DNA from: Aulosira sp. ZfuVER01
Lineage (GTDB): Bacteria > Cyanobacteriota > Cyanobacteriia > Cyanobacteriales > Nostocaceae
Assembly (NCBI GenBank): GCA_034530615.2
Contig: JAVRCV020000040.1
Span: forward strand, 1-64,000
Direction: 5' to 3'
Length of the DNA stretch: 64,000 nucleotides
Shown piece by piece: positions 5,705-63,236 of the stretch; position 1 is the first letter of the stretch, and each line of letters opens with the position of its first letter. A program made the translations under genes and the position numbers. The notes below the pieces were generated by a model. It had not been told where the DNA came from and ran no database searches. It saw only the letters and a list, made by a program, of their open reading frames with translations.

Positions 5705-8086
5705 ATGACTTTAGCAACTCCGACCCAATCAAAGCCTTTATCAGATGAAGAATTGCAGAAAATAAACGCTTACTGGCGTGCAGCTAACTATCTTTCTGTA
5801 GGGCAAATATATCTCCTCGACAATCCGCTGCTAAGAGAACCGCTGAAGCTAGAACACGTCAAACCCAGACTTTTGGGACACTGGGGAACAACACCGGGAT
5901 TGAACTTAATCTACGTTCATCTCAATCGTGCGATCGCTAAATATGACCTCAACACGATCTACATTGCTGGCCCTGGTCATGGCGGCCCTGGACTAGTTGC
6001 TAATACTTACTTAGAAGGGACTTACAGCCAATACTATCCCAACATCTCCCAGGATGCAGAGGGGATGAAGCAACTCTTCAAACAATTTTCCTTCCCTGGT
6101 GGGATTCCTAGCCACGTTGCACCAGAAACCCCCGGTTCGATTCATGAAGGTGGGGAACTTGGCTATGCTTTATCCCACGCCTACGGTGCTGCTTTTGATA
6201 ATCCTGACTTGCTAGTTGCTTGTGTAATTGGCGACGGCGAAGCCGAAACTGGGCCCCTAGCTGGGAGTTGGCATTCTAATAAGTTTCTCAACCCTGTAAA
6301 TGATGGCGCAGTCTTACCGATTCTCCACCTTAATGGGTATAAAATTGCCAACCCTACAGTATTATCACGGTTAAGCCACGAAGAACTGGAGAGTTTATTT
6401 GTTGGCTATGGTTATAAACCTTACTTTGTGGAAGGCTGGGAACCCGCAGATGTCCATCAGCAGATGGCAGCAACTTTAGATACAGTAGTTACAGAAATTC
6501 AAAGCATTCAAAGGGAAGCCAGGGTACATGGTTTCACCCAACGCCCACAGTGGCCGATGATTATTTTAAGAACTCCCAAAGGATGGACTGGGCCCAAAGA
6601 AGTTGATGGGAAAAAGACTGAAAACTTTTGGCGATCGCACCAAGTTCCTTTTGGGGAAATAGCCAAAAAGCCAGACCACTTACACCTACTAGAAGATTGG
6701 TTAAAAAGTTACAAGCCGGAAGAACTCTTCGACGCCAACGGAATGCTAATTCCCGAACTAGCAGAACTAGCACCTAAGGGACATAGGCGCATGGGTGACA
6801 ATCCCCACGCTAACGGCGGTATCTTGCTGCGCGACTTGAAATTACCTAAATTCGAGGACTACGCTGTTGATGTTCCGCAACCAGGTAAGGTAATTGCTGA
6901 AGCTACCAAAGTTACCGGAAAATTCCTGCGAGATGTCCTCAAGCTGAACCAGGAAAGTCGCAACTTCCGCATTGTCGGCCCGGATGAAACCCAATCAAAT
7001 CGCCTGGATGCTGTATTTGAAGTTACAGAACGCACTTGGACTGGCCAAATCCTACCAGAAGACGAAAAACTTTCACCCCATGGTCGGGTAATGGAAATCC
7101 TCAGCGAACATACTTGCCAAGGTTGGTTAGAAGGATACCTACTTACAGGTCGTCATGGATTTTTCTCCTGCTATGAAGCATTTATCCACATAGTAGACTC
7201 CATGTTCAACCAGCACGCCAAGTGGCTCAAAACCACCCGTCACATTCCTTGGCGCAGACCAATTGCTTCCCTCAACTACCTGCTTACTTCTCATGTTTGG
7301 CGACAAGACCATAACGGTTTTTCTCACCAAGACCCTGGTTTTATCGACCATGTAATGAACAAAAAAGCAGAGATTATTCGCGTCTATCTTCCGCCAGATG
7401 CCAATACACTGTTATCGGTGACAGACCATTGTCTAAAAAGTCGCAACTATGTCAACGTCATCGTCGCAGGTAAGCAACCAGCACTGCAATACTTAAATAT
7501 GGATGCAGCTATCAAGCACTGCACTAAAGGCATTGGCATTTGGGAATGGGCTAGCAACGATCGAGACAGCGAACCAGATGTAGTCATGGCTTGTGCTGGC
7601 GATATTCCCACCTTAGAAACCTTGGCGGCGGTGGATATTTTGCGCCAGCACTTCCCAGATTTAAAAGTGCGGGTGGTTAACGTAGTCGATTTGATGACGC
7701 TACAGCCAAAAAGCGAGCATCCCCACGGTTTAAGCAGCAAAGACTTTGACATAATTTTTACCACCGACAAACCAATTATCTTTGCGTTTCATGGCTATCC
7801 TTGGCTAATCCATCGCCTCACTTATCGCCATACAAACCACCACAACCTTCATGTACGCGGTTACAAAGAGGAAGGAACTACCACTACTCCCTTTGATATG
7901 GTTGTCCTCAACGATCTCGATCGCTTCCACCTGGTAATGGACGTAATCGATCGCGTGCCAAAACTCGGCTCTAAAGCAGCTTACGTCAAGCAAATGTTGC
8001 AAGATAAGCTAATCGAACACAAACACTATATTGAGCAGCACGGCGAAGATATGCCAGAAATTCGCGACTGGGAGTGGCCGTACTAG
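5705..8086 (+). CDS. xfp: Phosphoketolase (xylulose-5-P/fructose-6-P)
   Basis: [40 protein letters not shown] motif, [12 protein letters not shown]. Confidence 0.97.
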
Positions 8087-54541: not shown

Positions 54542-55741
54542 CTAAGTTAATAGATGCTGGCTGTTTTCATTACGATGTTTCTTTAGATACTCCATGAATG
54601 GTGTACCGCCTGTGCCAATATCGGTGTCGTTGTTGGATTTTGGAGTTTGCTGATGAATGTAGGAAGCCGCAAATTTGAGATGCTGAGTCCGGAATTGTTC
54701 TATGAGAGAAACGCAGTCATTATATAAATCTCTCAATTGAGGAACTGTATCTATGTGATTTTTGACGAAATCCCGCAGTGTCGATCGCTTTTCTACTTCT
54801 CTAATTAAGGTGCGGTGTTTAGGTGGCATATAATCCCGCATTTCTAGCAGGTATTCCCACAAAGGATCGTTTTGGTGGGCAATATTGAATAAAGCATCCA
54901 TCGTCGGCACGATCGCACTTTGCGCACCTGTCTCACCACGAAACTGCTGGGGTTGTTCGCCGTAAGCTTCTACGCCTTCATAGATCAGTCCTTCTGGTAA
55001 TGCAGGATTGTTTTTCCAAGCGTGAATGTAAGGACGCACGCGATTGTAGTAAATGTATGGATCGCAGGCTTCCGTCATCCGACTCATGGTGGTGTTAATC
55101 GTTGTCCATGCTTGTTTGATACTCTCTAAAGCATTGATGACAGTGGTAGTATTGCCTTGAGCAATTCCTTCTAAAATATTGGGAATCACCGCTAGCGCTG
55201 GTGCAGCTTTGGCTTCAATTTCAATGTGAATCAGGATAAACCAGTCTTCATCCAATCCACCTAAAAAGTTTTGCCAAATCGTGATGTTACCGATTTCGAT
55301 GGTTTCGGTTTCGTGAATTCGTACCCAGTTGTCTAAGGCGTAGGACGCATAAGATAATACAGGAGGCCTGCCCAGTTGTTGAGAAATCTTATAAAAAGGT
55401 ACAGCAATATTCCGTGGTAGCACTTTCACGGGTATGGGTTCACCCCAAATATATGCATGGGTTAGGTAAGCATACATCTGCATTGCTCTACGCAACTGCA
55501 TTTGATTCAAATTTTCTCGCTCTACGTCCACTTTGAAAATGTTCTCGATCGCGGAGCGAATCTTCCGCGTCGTCAGTAACTTGGGTAGCATCATCGCGGT
55601 TTTTTCGACTTGCCAAAAAATATCCGGCAATTGCGCCTCGGCTGGAGATTGCGTTGGTAAAAAACCAGTTTCTAGGCTAACTTCATAATCCTCCAGCTTG
55701 AGAGGATAGACAATTTTGTCTTTAGGTACAATTGCAGTCAT
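54542..55741 (-). CDS. Indoleamine 2,3-dioxygenase family heme enzyme
   Basis: GFLP, PPVLSYA, DEDWFILIH, RVRPY, GETGAQS, MRDYMPPKHR, FRTQH (proximal His), GTGGT. Confidence 0.9.
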   Translation of the reverse strand: MTAIVPKDKIVYPLKLEDYEVSLETGFLPTQSPAEAQLPDIFWQVEKTAMMLPKLLTTRKIRSAIENIFKVDVERENLNQMQLRRAMQMYAYLTHAYIWGEPIPVKVLPRNIAVPFYKISQQLGRPPVLSYASYALDNWVRIHETETIEIGNITIWQNFLGGLDEDWFILIHIEIEAKAAPALAVIPNILEGIAQGNTTTVINALESIKQAWTTINTTMSRMTEACDPYIYYNRVRPYIHAWKNNPALPEGLIYEGVEAYGEQPQQFRGETGAQSAIVPTMDALFNIAHQNDPLWEYLLEMRDYMPPKHRTLIREVEKRSTLRDFVKNHIDTVPQLRDLYNDCVSLIEQFRTQHLKFAASYIHQQTPKSNNDTDIGTGGTPFMEYLKKHRNENSQHLLT

Positions 55742-55752
55742 AATTCTTTGCC

Positions 55753-57768
55753 TCAGACTAATTTGTAACTTGCTAAAACAGCCTGATAATGTTCGCGCAG
55801 TACGCGACGCATGACTTTATTCGATGCAGTACGCGGTAATGTATCAACGATTACGAGGTCTTGAATTTTAAATAAAGGATTGAGTTGCTGGCGAATTGCC
55901 GTTTGTAAAGAATTTTTCAGTGCTTCTTTGTTCTGCTGGAGATGATTTTCCAGCACAGCGTAAATCACCAACTGACTTGGCCCGCCCTCAGGAGGAGAAA
56001 AAGCGATCGCCACAGCTTCGCAAATTCCCTCTACAGAATTGACAATTTGCTCAATTTCCACCGAGCTAACTTTGATACCGCCTAAATTCATTGTGTCATC
56101 AACCCGACCTTGAGCGCGGTAGTAGCCGTTAGGTAAGCGCTCAATGCGATCGCCATGACGGCGCAGGGAAGAGTCAGGAGTATGAGCGAAGTAAACTTGA
56201 TGGTGGTCTTTGTTGAGCAACTCAGTAGAAAGCCCAATGGAAGGAGCAACGATGAACACTTCGCCTTTATCGGCAGGATGTCCTGCTTCATCAACGATCG
56301 CTAAGTCTAAACCTAAAGCTGGTGTAGTAAAAGTTGCAGGTGCAGAAGGTTGTACCAAAGTACTAGTAATATATGCCCCGCCAATTTCCGTACCACCGCA
56401 GTACTCTACAATTGGCTTGTAACCAGCTAGAGACATCAAAAACAGCATATCTTGGGAATTAGAACACTCACCCGTAGAACTGAAAGCTTTGATACTGCTC
56501 CAATCAAACCCTTGCATACAGGCGGTAGTTTTCCAAACGCTGACTAAACTTGGTACTACACCCAGCATTGTCACATGGGCATCTTGAATAAATTCGCCAA
56601 ATCCCCGTTCTGTGGGTGTGCCATAGTAAAGGGCAATAGTTGCGCGATTAATTAAGCTGGCATAAATCAACCACGGCCCCATCATCCACCCTAAATTGGT
56701 TGGCCAAGCTATCACATCACCAGCATGAATATCTTGGTGTAAATGCCCATCCACAGCACATTTGATTGGGGTGGTTTGCGTCCAAGGAATTGCCTTCGGG
56801 ACTCCCGTTGTACCTGAGGAGAAGAGAATATTAGTGTAAGCCGCAGGATGGGCGGAAAAAGTAGCGAATTGTTCGTCGTTGCTAAGAAATTCCTTCCAAG
56901 TTAGATCGTTAGAACGCAATTCCACAGAGGAACCTAAAACGATCGCTCTTGGTGCCTTGGCATCAACTACTTTGGAATAAAGGGGTAACTGTTTACCAGA
57001 ACGCCAAATATGGTCTTGCGTAAAGATAGCTTTCGCCTCAGATATATGCAACCGCATGGCAATTTCCGCCGCCGCAAAACTATCAGCAATGGAAACTACT
57101 ACACAGCCAGCTTTGATAATACCTAAATAAATTGCTACCGATTCAGCAGTCATGGGCATAGCAATTGCGATCGCATCCCCAGGAACAAAGCCAGCTGTTA
57201 CCAATCCATTGGCGACTCGGTTAGTTAAACTGTGGAGTTCTTTATATGTCAGGGTACTAAGCGTACTGCCTTCTTCTTGAAAGATAATGGCGATCGCATT
57301 TTCGTCTGCCAAAAAACAACTCTCAACTATATTTAGCTGTGCATCTACCAGCCATTGAGGAGACTCCACACCCTGCGACAAGTCAACAATTGTGGTGTAT
57401 GGCTTGTGTAAGCGGATACATAATCGTTGAATCATCATCTCCCAGAACTCACCACGATGCTGAGTTGACCAAGCGTGCAGTTCTGCGTAGGAATCCACCT
57501 TTAGCTGTTTCATCAACGCTGCAATGTTGGTTGACTGAATTTGCTCCTCCGTGGGGAACCAAGCGGGAAGCTGTCCGGTTGCTTTATAAAGCAGTTCGTG
57601 AAAGCTAAAAGGTTGGTCAGGTTTGAGGATGTGGCGCGTGAATTGCTGCCAACACTCTGCGGCAGGCAGGGAGGATAACCACTGATTGATTTGTGGTAGC
57701 ATTGCAGCAGCCGTTTCTGTTGCTATGCCGCAAGCGATTATTTGTTCTAGCGATAACTGCTTTGTCAT
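55753..57768 (-). CDS. AMP-forming acyl-CoA ligase (acetyl/acetoacetyl-CoA synthetase-like)
   Basis: ILFSSGTTGVPK, WPTNLGWMMG, STGE, YCGGTE, HGD, GRVDD..N.GG, LPRTASNK. Confidence 0.9.
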   Translation of the reverse strand: MTKQLSLEQIIACGIATETAAAMLPQINQWLSSLPAAECWQQFTRHILKPDQPFSFHELLYKATGQLPAWFPTEEQIQSTNIAALMKQLKVDSYAELHAWSTQHRGEFWEMMIQRLCIRLHKPYTTIVDLSQGVESPQWLVDAQLNIVESCFLADENAIAIIFQEEGSTLSTLTYKELHSLTNRVANGLVTAGFVPGDAIAIAMPMTAESVAIYLGIIKAGCVVVSIADSFAAAEIAMRLHISEAKAIFTQDHIWRSGKQLPLYSKVVDAKAPRAIVLGSSVELRSNDLTWKEFLSNDEQFATFSAHPAAYTNILFSSGTTGVPKAIPWTQTTPIKCAVDGHLHQDIHAGDVIAWPTNLGWMMGPWLIYASLINRATIALYYGTPTERGFGEFIQDAHVTMLGVVPSLVSVWKTTACMQGFDWSSIKAFSSTGECSNSQDMLFLMSLAGYKPIVEYCGGTEIGGAYITSTLVQPSAPATFTTPALGLDLAIVDEAGHPADKGEVFIVAPSIGLSTELLNKDHHQVYFAHTPDSSLRRHGDRIERLPNGYYRAQGRVDDTMNLGGIKVSSVEIEQIVNSVEGICEAVAIAFSPPEGGPSQLVIYAVLENHLQQNKEALKNSLQTAIRQQLNPLFKIQDLVIVDTLPRTASNKVMRRVLREHYQAVLASYKLV

Positions 57769-57997
57769 CGCCCTTACCTCTTAATATAATTTTGGATTTT
57801 AGATTTTGGATTTTGAATTAAAAATCTGGCGTTGCATATTAGTGGGATGATTTGTCTCACGCAGAGACGCAGAGGCGCAGAGAGGATAAGGAGTTTTGGA
57901 TCATTTCTAGCAAATTGAATTTGAAAACACTCTGCGTTACTTTGCGCTTACTTTGCGTTCCTCTGCGTTAAAAAAAACTAACTTACACAAAGCACTA

Positions 57998-58918
57998 CTA
58001 AGTAAAAACTCCATTTACTCTGTCTTCGTTAAGACCATCCCAGAAAACAGCGATCGCATCTAAAATTTCTCGCCCGCCTTGGATAAACTTATATCGCTCA
58101 AAGTTAGATTGAAAATATACTTCTTCGAGTTCTTCTAAGGTATGTCCGGCGTGCTGTCCTTCAACGCGGTTGTGCCAAGTGAAGAACGCTAAATGCAGCT
58201 GCGGATGTCGTGTTTTTTTAATGCTGATCAGTCCGTCTTCTAACTCTTGCCAAAAGCCTGCTGCTGCCCAATTCTCAACAGCAAAGCTAGCACCCTCGGC
58301 TATGTGCGGGTCATCGCTACCATAAAGGCGTTGCAATTCATCGCAGAAGTGTAAGGTGCTGGGGCTACCGTGTTTGCGCTTACCCATTTCTTCGTAGTGT
58401 AGCCCCAACCCTTCAGCTACACCTAACAGCCATTCAAAATGAGCAGCCCGAAAGCGGCAGATACCACCGTCTACAGTACCTTCTGTACTTACTAGTTCGG
58501 GGTCGCCTTCTGTGTCTTTATCTTCCTCTGTTTGAGCTAAATGAGTGCTTACATTCTGTCCAGACTGACGATAAATGACGCCCAATTCGTTTAATAAAAT
58601 CTCTCGACTAGCCCGCGACTGCTTGAGGGTAGGTGAGTTAATCGCTTTCAGTAAAGCGGCTATTAAAAATTGGTTGGAAAATACAGAGAATTGTTTGATG
58701 AAATGGCGCAATTCTTCATCTGTCGCCGTACCATTGCTAAACCACCGAGTATAGGTGTTATTCGTAATGACGCGGTGCTGCAAAAATTCCCGTTCTACTT
58801 CAGTAAGGAAGTCGCGGAAACTATCCACTTGTGCTTGAGTCAACTCACCTCGCTGCAAGCGTTCCTCAATGCGTGAGGAAATAGGTAAATTGTTTGGTGT
58901 TGCTAAAACTTGAGTCAT
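57998..58918 (-). CDS. Heme-oxygenase-like (CADD/PqqC/TenA superfamily) putative diiron enzyme
   Basis: QFSVFS, NELG, AAHFEW, FAVENW, FFTWHNRVEGQH (HxxxExxH) give an E/H/E/H/E/H ligand set; RBS GAGGTGA. Confidence 0.7.
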   Translation of the reverse strand: MTQVLATPNNLPISSRIEERLQRGELTQAQVDSFRDFLTEVEREFLQHRVITNNTYTRWFSNGTATDEELRHFIKQFSVFSNQFLIAALLKAINSPTLKQSRASREILLNELGVIYRQSGQNVSTHLAQTEEDKDTEGDPELVSTEGTVDGGICRFRAAHFEWLLGVAEGLGLHYEEMGKRKHGSPSTLHFCDELQRLYGSDDPHIAEGASFAVENWAAAGFWQELEDGLISIKKTRHPQLHLAFFTWHNRVEGQHAGHTLEELEEVYFQSNFERYKFIQGGREILDAIAVFWDGLNEDRVNGVFT

Positions 58919-58994: not shown

Positions 58995-60176
58995 TTAACC
59001 GTGTACAGGTTCTCCTATATGAGACATCCAACTGTAAGAATAGTTTTTATCTTCTAAAGCTAAGGCATACTTCGTTAGTTTCAACGGACGGAAAGTATCA
59101 ATCATCACTGCCAGTTCATTAGTCCGTTCTTTCCCAATTGAACCCTCATACATTCCTGGGTGGGGGCCGTGGGGAATACCGCTAGGATGAACGGTAATTG
59201 ATGCCCGATCGATTCCTTTGCGGGACATAAAGTTGCCTTCTACGTAATAGATGACTTCATCTGAATCAACGTTGGAATGGTTATAAGGAGCCGGAACTGC
59301 TTGGGGATGGTAATCGAACAGGCGCGGTACAAAAGAACACACCACAAATCCTGGCGCTTCAAAGGTTTGATGTACAGGTGGTGGTTGATGCAGTCGTCCT
59401 GTAATTGGCTCAAAGTCTTCGATGTTGAAGGCATAAGGCCACAGATGTCCATCCCAGCCAACCACATCTAAAGGATGATGACGATAAAGATAACTGGTAA
59501 TTTGATTTTGCGCTTTAACTCGTACCTCAAATTCCCCTTCTTCATCGTGAGTAATTAACTCATCAGGTGGGCGAATGTCACGTTCGCAGTAGGGAGAATG
59601 TTCTAGGAATTGACCGTAACGATTGAGGTAACGGGCTGGTGGGTCGATATGTCCGTAGGCTTCAATTACTAGCATCCGTTGCTCAATTCCAGCATCGGGA
59701 ATTATCCGCCACATTACACCTGTGGGAATTACCAAGTAATCCCCCACGTTGTAACGCAGGATGCCATATTGGCTTTCTAATATACCGCTACCGTCGTGGA
59801 TGAAAAGTACTTCATCACCGTGAGCAAAGCGATACCAGTAATGCATCGGTTGGGTAGGACGAGCAACCGAAATGCAGATGTCTGCATTAGCCATCAAAGG
59901 AATCCGAGATGCGATCGCATCCCCACCCAAGTCTACTGTTGCTGTCCGTAAGTGTCGATGTAATAAAGCACCTGGTTCTTCATAAGGAATCTCTACCCTT
60001 TGTTCCAGCAAAATCCTCTCAATCTGCGTAGGTGGACGCAAATGGTAAAGCAGAGATTGCACGCCAGAAAAGCCGCGAATACTAATTAACTCTTCGTGAT
60101 ATAAAGAACCGTTGGGTTGCCGAAATTGTGTATGTCGCTTGTGTGGTAGTTTCCCCAACTTATAGTAGTAAGTCAT
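58995..60176 (-). CDS. hmgA: Homogentisate 1,2-dioxygenase (short bacterial type)
   Basis: P.KRH, HPLDVVGWDG, HQPPPVHQTF, PYNHSNVDSDE, HPSGIPHGPHPG, ELAVMIDTF. Confidence 0.93.
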   Translation of the reverse strand: MTYYYKLGKLPHKRHTQFRQPNGSLYHEELISIRGFSGVQSLLYHLRPPTQIERILLEQRVEIPYEEPGALLHRHLRTATVDLGGDAIASRIPLMANADICISVARPTQPMHYWYRFAHGDEVLFIHDGSGILESQYGILRYNVGDYLVIPTGVMWRIIPDAGIEQRMLVIEAYGHIDPPARYLNRYGQFLEHSPYCERDIRPPDELITHDEEGEFEVRVKAQNQITSYLYRHHPLDVVGWDGHLWPYAFNIEDFEPITGRLHQPPPVHQTFEAPGFVVCSFVPRLFDYHPQAVPAPYNHSNVDSDEVIYYVEGNFMSRKGIDRASITVHPSGIPHGPHPGMYEGSIGKERTNELAVMIDTFRPLKLTKYALALEDKNYSYSWMSHIGEPVHG

Positions 60177-60191
60177 AATTCCGCCCCGTTT

Positions 60192-61298
60192 CTAGACGCT
60201 TACGAGATTTCCCCGCCGTGCTTGTTCGCGTTCAATAGCTTCAAACAAGGCTTTGAAGTTTCCTTCACCGAAACCCCGCGCCCCGTGTCGTTCAATCACC
60301 TCAAAAAACAGTGTTGGTCTATCTTGTACGGGTTGAGTAAAAATTTGCAGCAAGTACCCATCTTGATCTCTATCGACTAAGATGCCTAACTCTGCCAACT
60401 TATCTATAGATTCGTCAATTTTCCCTACCCGTTGTTCTAAGTTCTCGTAATAAGTTGGTGGAGCAACTAAAAACTCCACACCTGTTGCTTTCATGCGGGT
60501 AACTGTCTCAATAATATTTTCAGTTGCCAACGCTATATGTTGAACTCCAGGCCCATAGTTATATTCTAAATATTCTTCAATCTGGGATTTGCGTTTACCA
60601 GTAGCAGGTTCGTTAATTGGGAATTTAATTTTGCCTGAACCATCCTGCATCACTTTGGACATTAAGGCAGAATATTCTGTAGCAATGGTTTTATCGTCAA
60701 AATGTACTAAAAGATTAAAGCCCATTGTCTCGGCAAAAAACTGCACCCAACGTTCCATTGCACCGAGTTCGACGTTACCAACTATATGATCGATGGCTTT
60801 TAGCCCCACTCCTTGACTGGTGAGGTGTGTCTTAGTTTGAGCCTCAAAACGAGGAGCAAACACACCTGCATAATCACTGCGATCGATAAATTTAATTAGA
60901 GTGTCACCGTAACCACGAATGGCAGAATAACGAAATACCCCATAAGCATCTTCTTCTTCGGTGGGAGTAATTACTCCTAAAGCACCTCGGCTAGTTGTTT
61001 GTTTGTAAGCGCTAACAGCATCCGGTACTTCTAGGGCAATAACAGCAACACTATCACCGTGTTTCAGTACACTTTTAGCAATGGGATGCTCTGGATTCAA
61101 CCCTGTACTTAAAACAAAGTTGATATTTCCTTGTTGCATCAAATATGATGCTGTATCGCGGTAGTTGGTTTCTAAGCCTCGATAAGCTGTGTTAGTAAAT
61201 CCGAAACACTTGGCATAAAACAGCGCTGCTTGCTTGGCGTTCCCAACATAAAATTCCAAGTGGTCAATGCGCTTAATTGGGCAAAAATCGTTCATCAT
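60192..61298 (-). CDS. hppD: 4-hydroxyphenylpyruvate dioxygenase
   Basis: IDHIVGNV, SALMSKV, FPINEP, SQIEEYL, GVQHIAL, LLQIFT, FFEVIER, GFGEGNFKALF. Confidence 0.97.
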   Translation of the reverse strand: MMNDFCPIKRIDHLEFYVGNAKQAALFYAKCFGFTNTAYRGLETNYRDTASYLMQQGNINFVLSTGLNPEHPIAKSVLKHGDSVAVIALEVPDAVSAYKQTTSRGALGVITPTEEEDAYGVFRYSAIRGYGDTLIKFIDRSDYAGVFAPRFEAQTKTHLTSQGVGLKAIDHIVGNVELGAMERWVQFFAETMGFNLLVHFDDKTIATEYSALMSKVMQDGSGKIKFPINEPATGKRKSQIEEYLEYNYGPGVQHIALATENIIETVTRMKATGVEFLVAPPTYYENLEQRVGKIDESIDKLAELGILVDRDQDGYLLQIFTQPVQDRPTLFFEVIERHGARGFGEGNFKALFEAIEREQARRGNLVSV

Positions 61299-61846: not shown

Positions 61847-62347
61847 GTGAAAGTGAAGCCTATACTAAAGAACTTTGAACAACTCCAACATTTAGATGAT
61901 ATAGACCGACAACTGTTGTGTTTATTGCAAGAGAACAGTCGGATAACTTTTGCCGAATTAGCCCGTCACGTTAATCTCTCCACGCCTGGGTTGCAAAAGA
62001 GATTGCGCAAGCTGGAAGAAAAAGGTGTGATTGACCGCTATGTTACTTTAGTGAATCGAGAAGCGCTAGGTTTAGACTTGCTGTGTTTTGCTCAAGTTAC
62101 CTTGGTAAATCATCAACCTGAATGTGTGGGGATGTTTTGCGATCGCGTCAAGGAACTACCAGAAGTTTTAGAATGTCACCATCTCAGCGGCGAATTTGAT
62201 TATTTATTGAAAATGGTTGTCCCTAACCATCAGCACTTAGCAAAGTTGTTGTCAGAAAAAATTACCCGCATTCCTGGTATAGATAGAATCCAGACTAATA
62301 TTGTTCTTGATGAGATTAAAGCTTCAACCTCGCTACCATTAGATTAA
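61847..62347 (+). CDS. Lrp/AsnC-family transcriptional regulator
   Basis: LDDIDRQLL..LQ.NSR, HTH ELARHVNLS...KRLRKLE..GVI, EVLECHHLSGEFDYLLK; GTG after AGGAGA. Confidence 0.95.
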   Translation: MKVKPILKNFEQLQHLDDIDRQLLCLLQENSRITFAELARHVNLSTPGLQKRLRKLEEKGVIDRYVTLVNREALGLDLLCFAQVTLVNHQPECVGMFCDRVKELPEVLECHHLSGEFDYLLKMVVPNHQHLAKLLSEKITRIPGIDRIQTNIVLDEIKASTSLPLD

Positions 62348-62366: not shown

Positions 62367-63236
62367 ATGGTTGCATCATTAGAAACGCTGCTTTCATCAG
62401 TTGTGGACTACGCTGGATTGTTTCCGCCAGCCAAGTTGGAATTACAGCCAGCAATGGCGAATTATGCGCAATATCAGACAACTCCCTACACTTGGATGTT
62501 AGGTCGCTTTATTTTGCCAGTTTCTCGGTTGCAAGAGTTTGAGCAACTTTTACCAGAGAAATCAAGACAATGGCTACTGAGTGTAATTATGACTGGAGAT
62601 GTCAAAGAAGCGATCGCTCAACTACAGTCACTCAACAACGATAAAATTGCGGTTGCATCTTTGGAATTCCCCCCACTTCCACCTACTGAAATCGAAAAAA
62701 TACTTTCCTACCTCCCGGCTGAGATAGAATCATTTTTTGAAATTCCGTTTAACAACGACTTCAAAAGCTATTTATCTGTTTTGCAACATACTGGTGCAGC
62801 CGCTAAAATCCGAACTGGCGGTGTAACAGTCGATGCATTCCCGAGTATCTATCAGCTATGCCAGATTATCTTCGCCTTTGCAGAAGCTCAAGTTCCCTTT
62901 AAAGCAACCGCAGGACTGCATCATCCATTACCAGCGAAACATCGATTAACCAGTGAATCAAATAGCCCTAGTGCTGTTATGCACGGTTTTTTGAATGTTA
63001 TTGTCTTGGCAGCACTGGTTTATCACCAAAAATTAAAGCCAGAGACAGCCTTAGAACTACTCCAAGATTCAGCGAGTGATAATTTTAAATTTACAAACGA
63101 CAGTATTTCTTGGAAAAATCATCAATTAAATATTTCCGAGATAGAAGCAACTAGAAAGCGTTTCTTTCGTTCCTTTGGTTCCTGCTCATTTCAAGAGCCA
63201 ATAGATGACCTCAAAGAATTAAGATTATTAAAGTAA
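62367..63236 (+). CDS. Conserved hypothetical protein (DYAGLFPPA family)
   Basis: Motifs VDYAGLFPPA, FFE, AKIRTGG, PFKATAGLHHP, HGFLN, SFGSCS; 19 nt after the Lrp gene. Confidence 0.85.
   Translation: MVASLETLLSSVVDYAGLFPPAKLELQPAMANYAQYQTTPYTWMLGRFILPVSRLQEFEQLLPEKSRQWLLSVIMTGDVKEAIAQLQSLNNDKIAVASLEFPPLPPTEIEKILSYLPAEIESFFEIPFNNDFKSYLSVLQHTGAAAKIRTGGVTVDAFPSIYQLCQIIFAFAEAQVPFKATAGLHHPLPAKHRLTSESNSPSAVMHGFLNVIVLAALVYHQKLKPETALELLQDSASDNFKFTNDSISWKNHQLNISEIEATRKRFFRSFGSCSFQEPIDDLKELRLLK

Follow-up and report, generated by a model that had tools for sequence, protein, structure and literature searches.

A heme-oxygenase-like putative diiron oxygenase of bacterial homogentisate clusters as a candidate non-homologous phenylalanine 4-hydroxylase

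Introduction

The conversion of phenylalanine into tyrosine is, to our knowledge, a textbook step ascribed to a single pterin-dependent family, PhhA/PAH (PF00351, EC 1.14.16.1), whose members use one iron and tetrahydropterin. Here we examine a 64,000-nucleotide stretch of the cyanobacterium Aulosira sp. ZfuVER01 (Nostocaceae; assembly GCA_034530615.2, contig JAVRCV020000040.1, positions 1 to 64,000 of the forward strand), called the window below, in which a gene for a protein with the predicted fold of heme-oxygenase-like diiron oxygenases (HDOs) follows hppD and hmgA in a homogentisate cluster. From sequence comparison and modelling, we consider it probable that this protein acts as a non-homologous phenylalanine 4-hydroxylase, turning L-Phe into L-Tyr. 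Its family shares with PhhA/PAH the slot before hppD, a complementary distribution and the proposed reaction, but the two are unrelated in sequence and fold: the HDO is predicted to be helical and heme-oxygenase-like with a diiron site in place of one iron plus tetrahydropterin, and is proposed as an analogue, not as a family member.

The described HDOs closest to the structural model of the Aulosira protein are BesC (7TWA), HrmI (9N1A), FlcD (8W1Q), CtCADD (8VA9/1RCW) and UndA (6P5Q), with which it shares a seven-helix fold (Z 19.9, 19.5, 19.4, 19.1 and 17.4, respectively; rmsd 2.5-3.4 A over 211-226 residues). The order of three histidines and three carboxylates is also common to the target and the HDO superfamily, NePabS (9PJ4) included. 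However, identity to known HDOs is only 11-18%, no family model is satisfied, and the target belongs to a catabolic cluster whereas known HDOs have a biosynthetic setting; the reaction proposed here does not appear in the available portions of an HDO review (PMC13108848). AetD, which is cyanobacterial, and SktA resemble the target in their HDO fold and in taking an aromatic amino acid, as proposed for the target, but according to the accessible accounts they break or rearrange its side chain in secondary metabolism, and AetD matches the model less closely in structure (Z 14.4). Finally, Aspergillus HmgX (AFUA_2G04210), compared here by its description in the accessible part of the original report, is likewise encoded next to hppD as an additional member of a tyrosine-degradation cluster; HmgX is distinguished by being required at the HppD step and by having its best matches in ascomycetes (PMC3203155).

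Results

Exchange of phhA and the HDO gene at the hppD locus

The gene under study and the residues predicted to bind its metals are the following.

57998..58918, minus strand: HDO-fold putative diiron oxygenase, proposed phenylalanine 4-hydroxylase analogue (306 aa, ATG start)
58586..58588, minus strand: E111 (NELG), predicted metal ligand at the end of helix 98-111 (conservation, profile alignment, model)
58439..58441, minus strand: H160 (AAHF), predicted metal ligand (conservation, profile alignment)
58274..58276, minus strand: E215 (AVEN), predicted metal ligand (conservation, profile alignment)
58151..58174, minus strand: H249-x3-E253-x2-H256, predicted metal ligands in helix 244-268 (conservation, profile alignment, model)

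Support for a role at the PhhA step comes from gene order in Planctomycetia, where the HDO gene precedes hppD in 22 of 25 loci. Of the 47 genomes with PhhA, 17 were examined, and phhA precedes hppD in 13 of these. Locus L283, with PhhA, and locus L087, with HDO, hold eight of nine genes in a shared order: an epimerase-like and a gmd-like gene (labels given from sequence appearance only), a hypothetical gene, a quinone oxidoreductase, hppD, fahA, hmgA and a flavin-reductase gene. Only the phhA/HDO slot before hppD differs, with one extra gene at that slot in L087; identities between the encoded proteins range from 35 to 83%, HppD standing at 79%. A quick HppD tree was built from 22 HDO-led, 13 PhhA-led and four cyanobacterial rows, after removal of duplicates and of six loci whose HppD is truncated. 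On this tree, the PhhA label requires four changes, at least two of them forced, and a branch of support 97 unites L087 with three PhhA-led rows. Once long-branch and cyanobacterial rows were removed, three changes were required and a single PhhA-led clade was rejected by the approximately unbiased test (p=0.00045), whose labels were set by gene order and which was run after the first tree had been seen. A broader quick tree places HDO with both deep HppD clades, the HDO-led L093 being sister to the PhhA-led L202 with support 100. Genes that replace each other repeatedly at the same locus usually signal non-orthologous displacement, and the recurrent exchange of phhA and the HDO gene therefore argues for the same input and output as PhhA.

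Mutual exclusion with PhhA

PhhA is common in Proteobacteria; our genome-level searches for it covered Cyanobacteriota and Planctomycetota. No PF00351 protein was found in at least 80 distinct HDO-bearing genomes, made up of the Aulosira genome (99.99% complete), 50 of the 80 genomes whose loci are described below, five further genomes, G335 and 29 Planctomycetia, less six repeats; 11 more screened relatives may overlap with these. Among 251 sampled Cyanobacteriota, 31 carry hmgA, five of which have HDO and none of these five PhhA. A PF00351 match is present in 15 of the 26 others (five being long split-match types), which were screened for HDO with a single protein only, and a profile search of 10 of the 11 genomes with neither gene returned no HDO. 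HppD occurs in 16 of 201 Planctomycetota, distributed as nine with PhhA, two with HDO and five with neither, so that PhhA is found in nine of the 14 HppD-bearing genomes lacking HDO. Over 301 Planctomycetia, 29 hold HDO (three split or partial) and 47 PhhA, and none holds both where 4.5 would be expected, a hypergeometric probability of 0.0056 whose significance is overstated because the genomes are kin. A genome labelled 'Alcaligenaceae' (G320) came in the same class sample as planctomycete genomes. The earlier note on this DNA had guessed, among other options, at a stand-in for phenylalanine hydroxylase and had named mutual exclusivity with phhA as a check; both the exclusion and, more strongly, the swap at a shared locus speak for this guess.

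Homologues and their neighbourhoods

The HDO protein matches 4,722 clusters at 90% identity among 6,574 candidates; the close ones are named from cyanobacteria, and Moritella, Alkalimarinus, Methylocaldum and Pelomicrobium are named among the proteobacterial holders. We examined the best 80 genome loci of 139 relatives and the best 80 metagenome loci of 470, the latter from a proteobacterial-type clade and with many short contigs. The genome loci contain hppD (74), hmgA (75), fahA (46), an acyl-CoA synthetase gene (48) and an indoleamine 2,3-dioxygenase (IDO) gene (7), but neither maiA nor phhA. The counts are 31 for hppD, 40 for hmgA, 46 for fahA, 44 for maiA, 7 for TDO, 2 for IDO and none for phhA in the metagenome loci. 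Of the loci with at least 3 kb available on each side, 63 of 64 from genomes and 19 of 21 from metagenomes contain a pathway gene (hppD, hmgA, fahA or maiA), and this linkage extends over cyanobacteria, planctomycetes and proteobacterial-type contigs. HDO relatives at 56% and about 40% identity adjoin hppD or fahA-hmgA (L093, L095, L096), and a distant homologue (L273) heads an hppD-hmgA-unknown-fahA-synthetase series. In 41 near relatives, HDO and full-length hmgA coincide in the same 12, a thirteenth having an hmgA fragment at a contig edge. One clean HDO-HppD fusion was recovered (P0418); frameshifts seem to account for the fusions P0420 and P0421, and a gene call that runs too long for P0417. 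As HppD, HmgA, FahA and MaiA are all encoded beside HDO in proteobacterial-type loci, the unfilled steps lie upstream of HppD. The family is real, widespread and previously uncharacterised: no published account of it, or of an HDO phenylalanine hydroxylase, was found in the mainly non-subscription literature searched, though sequence-network supplements of HDO papers may include its members with no function assigned.

Replacement of FahA or MaiA by HDO was considered and rejected, fahA being present in the 46 genome loci and elsewhere in the Aulosira genome and maiA in the 44 metagenome loci. HDO as sole source of tyrosine is unsupported, a TyrA domain being found in four of five HDO genomes.

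Several other associations were recorded. A UbiA-family prenyltransferase lies near or next to HDO in five of 80 loci (L024, L031, L037, L046, L048) and is fused to it once (P0419), a possible link to homogentisate-derived prenylquinones. Two genes are found repeatedly in the vicinity of HDO (L037, L041, L042, L056), one for a 2-oxoglutarate-Fe dioxygenase (PF10014) and one cysteine-desulfurase-like, and the same pair follows it on a Gloeothece plasmid without hppD (L204 9001-11896). Several cyanobacterial clusters (L047, L050, L061, L069, L073, L034, L045) carry additional genes of threonine/serine catabolism, for an epimerase-fold dehydrogenase, a class II aminotransferase and dehydratases of threonine and serine, which suggests an amino-acid-scavenging island. 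In G170 and G181, fahA-hmgA and HDO are accompanied by a 259-aa protein without Pfam match (L095 6466-7245, L096 7558-8334) and no TIGR01263 HppD; this protein is possibly a divergent HppD substitute.

Predicted fold and metal ligands

The candidate ligands E, H, E and HxxxExxH listed in the earlier note are all present and nearly invariant. In 239 homologues of 270-345 aa picked from the top matches (119 close and 120 proteobacterial-type), E111 and H160 are kept in all, E215 and H256 in 238 and E253 in 236, and H249 is kept in at least 95% of both sets; per set, conservation of the six residues runs at 97-100%. The pattern is thus more than chance would give, and all six ligands are kept in 27 of 35 rows of a wider, more distant set. 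The CADD-type order that the note had recognised was recovered by profile alignment with four CADD-like proteins (probability 98.5), which puts E111, H160, H249, E253 and H256 onto their E, H, H, D and H, and E215 at most a few columns away from their second Glu. A PDB search with the single sequence gave no match; a profile of 85 homologues retrieved NePabS, BesC and a CADD-like protein (E 0.0025-0.013). An AlphaFold2 model (pLDDT 91.3, pTM 0.88) has BesC, HrmI, FlcD and CADD as tied best structural matches (Z 19.1-19.9), so that the heme-oxygenase-like fold expected by the note is borne out by modelling. We therefore predict a seven-helix heme-oxygenase-like fold in which three histidines and three carboxylates occur in HDO order on the three modelled core helices; as judged from fold and register only, their side chains would meet at one dimetal site. 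A Pfam scan of the protein gave no match at E 0.1, PF00351 included, and the BesC equivalog NF042919 scored 18.7 bits, far under its cut-off of 500, which places the target outside that family.

Homologues with lost ligands were also noticed. P0145, P0149, P0170, P0217 and P0230 are ligand-less and resemble the proteobacterial clade; judging from their sequences, they are possibly inactive paralogues or partner subunits. The contig L186 of a giant-virus metagenome-assembled genome encodes at 6001-6786 a homologue with several metal ligands lost, belonging to a cluster of 72 marine members (P0169/P0292, P0215); viral scans gave one ligand-less homologue, and none for P0215.

The insertion between the first Glu and the His

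58442..58585, minus strand: 48-residue insertion, residues 112-159; predicted beta-hairpin 114-117/148-154 with a conserved Gly-rich core and a variable acidic loop/helix 118-140

The earlier note had described a long acidic insertion. Its length stands, E111 and H160 being separated by exactly 48 residues, but it is moderately acidic only (9 D/E versus 4 K/R), and the acidic loop is dispensable. Conservation is limited to the hairpin core G113-V114 ... G147-x3-G151-G152-x3-F156 (~21 residues), and AlphaFold2 modelled the loop and helix carried by the hairpin at lower confidence. Proteobacterial-type relatives have an E111-H160 spacer of 35-71 residues; among distant relatives with all six ligands the shortest have one of 20-23, where the hairpin core is kept and the acidic part absent. 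Considering all relatives that keep every ligand, the spacer is 20-53 residues versus 9-16 in the four CADD-like proteins. The acidic loop was consequently rejected as a functional hallmark, being absent from many ligand-complete relatives, and the conserved hairpin may form a substrate lid in the modelled structure.

The cluster in the Aulosira window

60192..61298, minus strand: hppD, 4-hydroxyphenylpyruvate dioxygenase (TIGR01263 435.9 bits, cut-off 277)
58995..60176, minus strand: hmgA-like homogentisate 1,2-dioxygenase, short type (PF20510, PF04209; TIGR01015 55 bits, below cut-off)
55753..57768, minus strand: AMP-forming acyl-CoA synthetase (best match acetoacetate-CoA ligase, below cut-off)
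54542..55741, minus strand: indoleamine 2,3-dioxygenase family gene, only occasionally part of such clusters (PF01231 330 bits)
61847..62347, plus strand: Lrp/AsnC regulator, divergent, upstream of the cluster (in 28 of 80 related loci and the window)
62367..63236, plus strand: 289-aa protein, upstream (no Pfam/NCBIfam match; in 48 of 80 loci, mostly beside fahA)

On the same strand, hppD, hmgA, the HDO gene, the acyl-CoA synthetase gene and the IDO-family gene follow each other with gaps of 15, 76, 229 and 11 bp. The HDO frame thus starts 76 bp past the hmgA stop, with GAGG upstream of its ATG; the earlier note had placed it directly after hmgA. From its sequence, acetoacetate is likely the substrate activated by the synthetase, and the Lrp/AsnC regulator likely controls the cluster. 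The Aulosira genome has, away from the cluster, a second hppD (G000 C31 43355-44425, 50% identical) and a stand-alone fahA (C34 110529-111833). The 289-aa protein (L273 4694-5717 in the distant locus) accompanies fahA in 48 of 80 loci, maiA being absent from all of these, and is a candidate for the maleylacetoacetate isomerase step otherwise missing from the cluster. The 229-bp gap 3' of the HDO gene (57769-57997) contains short CGCAGAG-type direct and inverted repeats with the look of cyanobacterial intergenic repeats. A promoter and terminator scan did not rise far above shuffled sequence (23 versus 18.0 +/- 4.3, and 6 versus 8.4). The contigs that one metatranscriptome run gave over parts of the cluster all belong to a relative (most 90-95% alike) and are evidence neither of transcription nor of a single transcript.

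Discussion

Taken from sequence and model, hydroxylation of the ring of either phenylalanine or phenylpyruvate is what we hold quite likely for the HDO, and phenylalanine is the probable substrate. In the proposed mechanism, a diferrous 3-His/3-Glu site loaded with Fe(II)2 would bind O2, and a peroxo-diferric or higher oxidant would be formed by analogy with other HDOs, as described in the accessible text of the HDO review (PMC13108848). This oxidant would attack the para position of the phenylalanine ring to give L-Tyr. Ferritin-like diiron arene hydroxylases are a chemical precedent for such an attack. Tyrosine would then be transaminated to 4-hydroxyphenylpyruvate and pass through HppD, HmgA and FahA (encoded on C34 in the Aulosira genome) to fumarate and acetoacetate. 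Two electrons would have to be supplied from outside, ferredoxin being a guess for cyanobacteria. A pterin may also be the donor, in place of the pterin-independent chemistry guessed in the earlier note, since pterin-4a-carbinolamine dehydratase is kept in the three HDO genomes tested; PhhB-family genes do not discriminate, because they occur in five of five genomes, HDO-bearing and PhhA-bearing alike. A homologue with all six ligands, probably eukaryotic, has an N-terminal cytochrome b5 domain fused to it (P0124), which hints at an electron donor. MboA, as its available account states, has a dedicated reductase (PMC13185094). The phenylacetate route (PF05138) was found in none of five HDO genomes, a small sample for which the control search did not list E. 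coli; this absence is compatible with a phenylalanine hydroxylase.

A number of observations weigh against this reading. The genomic data by themselves fit phenylalanine and phenylpyruvate alike, and in its accessible portions the HDO review does not treat the hydroxylation of free arenes ('aromatic' gives 0 matches; PMC13108848), while the tryptophan-using AetD and SktA act, as far as their available descriptions go, on the side chain and not on the ring. No dedicated reductase accompanies the HDO gene, and the quinone-oxidoreductase and flavin-reductase neighbours are also found in PhhA loci. Ligands are missing in eight of the 35 distant homologue rows, homologues L094, L188, L272 and L204 are unlinked to hppD or the pathway, TIGR01263 finds no match in G170 and G181, and HppD and PhhA are both missing from G393. 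As for the exclusion, its significance is inflated by kinship, many of the genomes searched are metagenome-assembled with unstated completeness, and Proteobacteria fall outside its scope. Furthermore, neither gene occurs in 11 of the 26 hmgA-bearing Cyanobacteriota without HDO and in five of the 16 HppD-bearing Planctomycetota; with so many pathway-bearing genomes having neither, the homogentisate pathway does not demand a hydroxylase.

If the HDO hydroxylated the keto acid instead, converting phenylpyruvate into 4-hydroxyphenylpyruvate passed directly to HppD, the PhhA swap would be explained equally well, and the P0418 fusion would join consecutive steps. Neighbours of the Phe/Leu-dehydrogenase family (5/80 genome and 7/80 metagenome loci) and aminotransferases (12/80 genome loci) would suit such a route, but they are a minority and equally useful for tyrosine, and characterised HDOs mostly use amino acids or fatty acids according to the accessible parts of two sources (PMC13108848, PMC13185094), which makes this route unlikely. 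An accessory role for HppD, such as iron loading, re-reduction or repair, draws on the same fusion, on hppD being the tightest gene linkage and on Aspergillus HmgX, which in the available text of its report adjoins hppD and is required to turn 4-hydroxyphenylpyruvate into homogentisate (PMC3203155). We regard it as very unlikely, as it predicts neither exclusion of PhhA nor exchange with it: the closely related HppDs of L087 and L283 include one found with PhhA and without HDO, both deep HppD clades include partners of HDO, and HppD is found in 37 of the 41 near relatives against 12 for HDO.

The HDO might also use O2 to act on an aromatic amino acid in some other way, by either oxidative deamination of tyrosine to 4-hydroxyphenylpyruvate or an AetD/SktA-like side-chain cleavage of tyrosine or tryptophan, the second guess of the earlier note. 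Known HDO chemistry, as far as the accessible sources describe it, prefers the amine or side chain, and IDO/TDO genes lie near some loci, the window included. However, these genes are near only seven of 80 genome and at most nine of 80 metagenome loci, AetD is a distant fold match compared with Z values of 19-20, and such a reaction gives no reason to exclude PhhA or to occupy its slot, so that we find it improbable and do not favour the side-chain guess. Least of all do we expect a self-sacrificing 4-aminobenzoate synthase of the CADD/NePabS type. Although CADD is the top Foldseek match of the model (E 3.5e-5) and NePabS the top PDB profile match (E 0.0025), identity is only 16-18%, TIGR04305 gives no match at E 0.1 (the CADD-like protein of L105 itself, at 86 bits, is below the cut-off of 200), and the annotated genes that recur nearby belong to homogentisate and amino-acid catabolism, with no folate gene among them; this function is extremely improbable.

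To conclude, phenylalanine 4-hydroxylation is the reading that we favour. We lean, by a narrow margin of belief, towards its broad form, in which a second phenylalanine 4-hydroxylase has evolved independently as a diiron HDO that hydroxylates a free arene without pterin, numbers thousands of proteins from several bacterial phyla, has likely relatives among eukaryotes (one a cytochrome b5 fusion), and has been repeatedly traded with PhhA. If true, the gap between phenylalanine and tyrosine in cyanobacteria, planctomycetes and some proteobacteria would be filled by a non-homologous enzyme. HDO chemistry, which the review in its accessible portions ties to natural-product and cofactor synthesis (PMC13108848), would then be extended to arene hydroxylation and amino-acid catabolism. 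Besides, such an enzyme might serve as a simpler biocatalyst where tyrosine is to be produced or phenylalanine removed.
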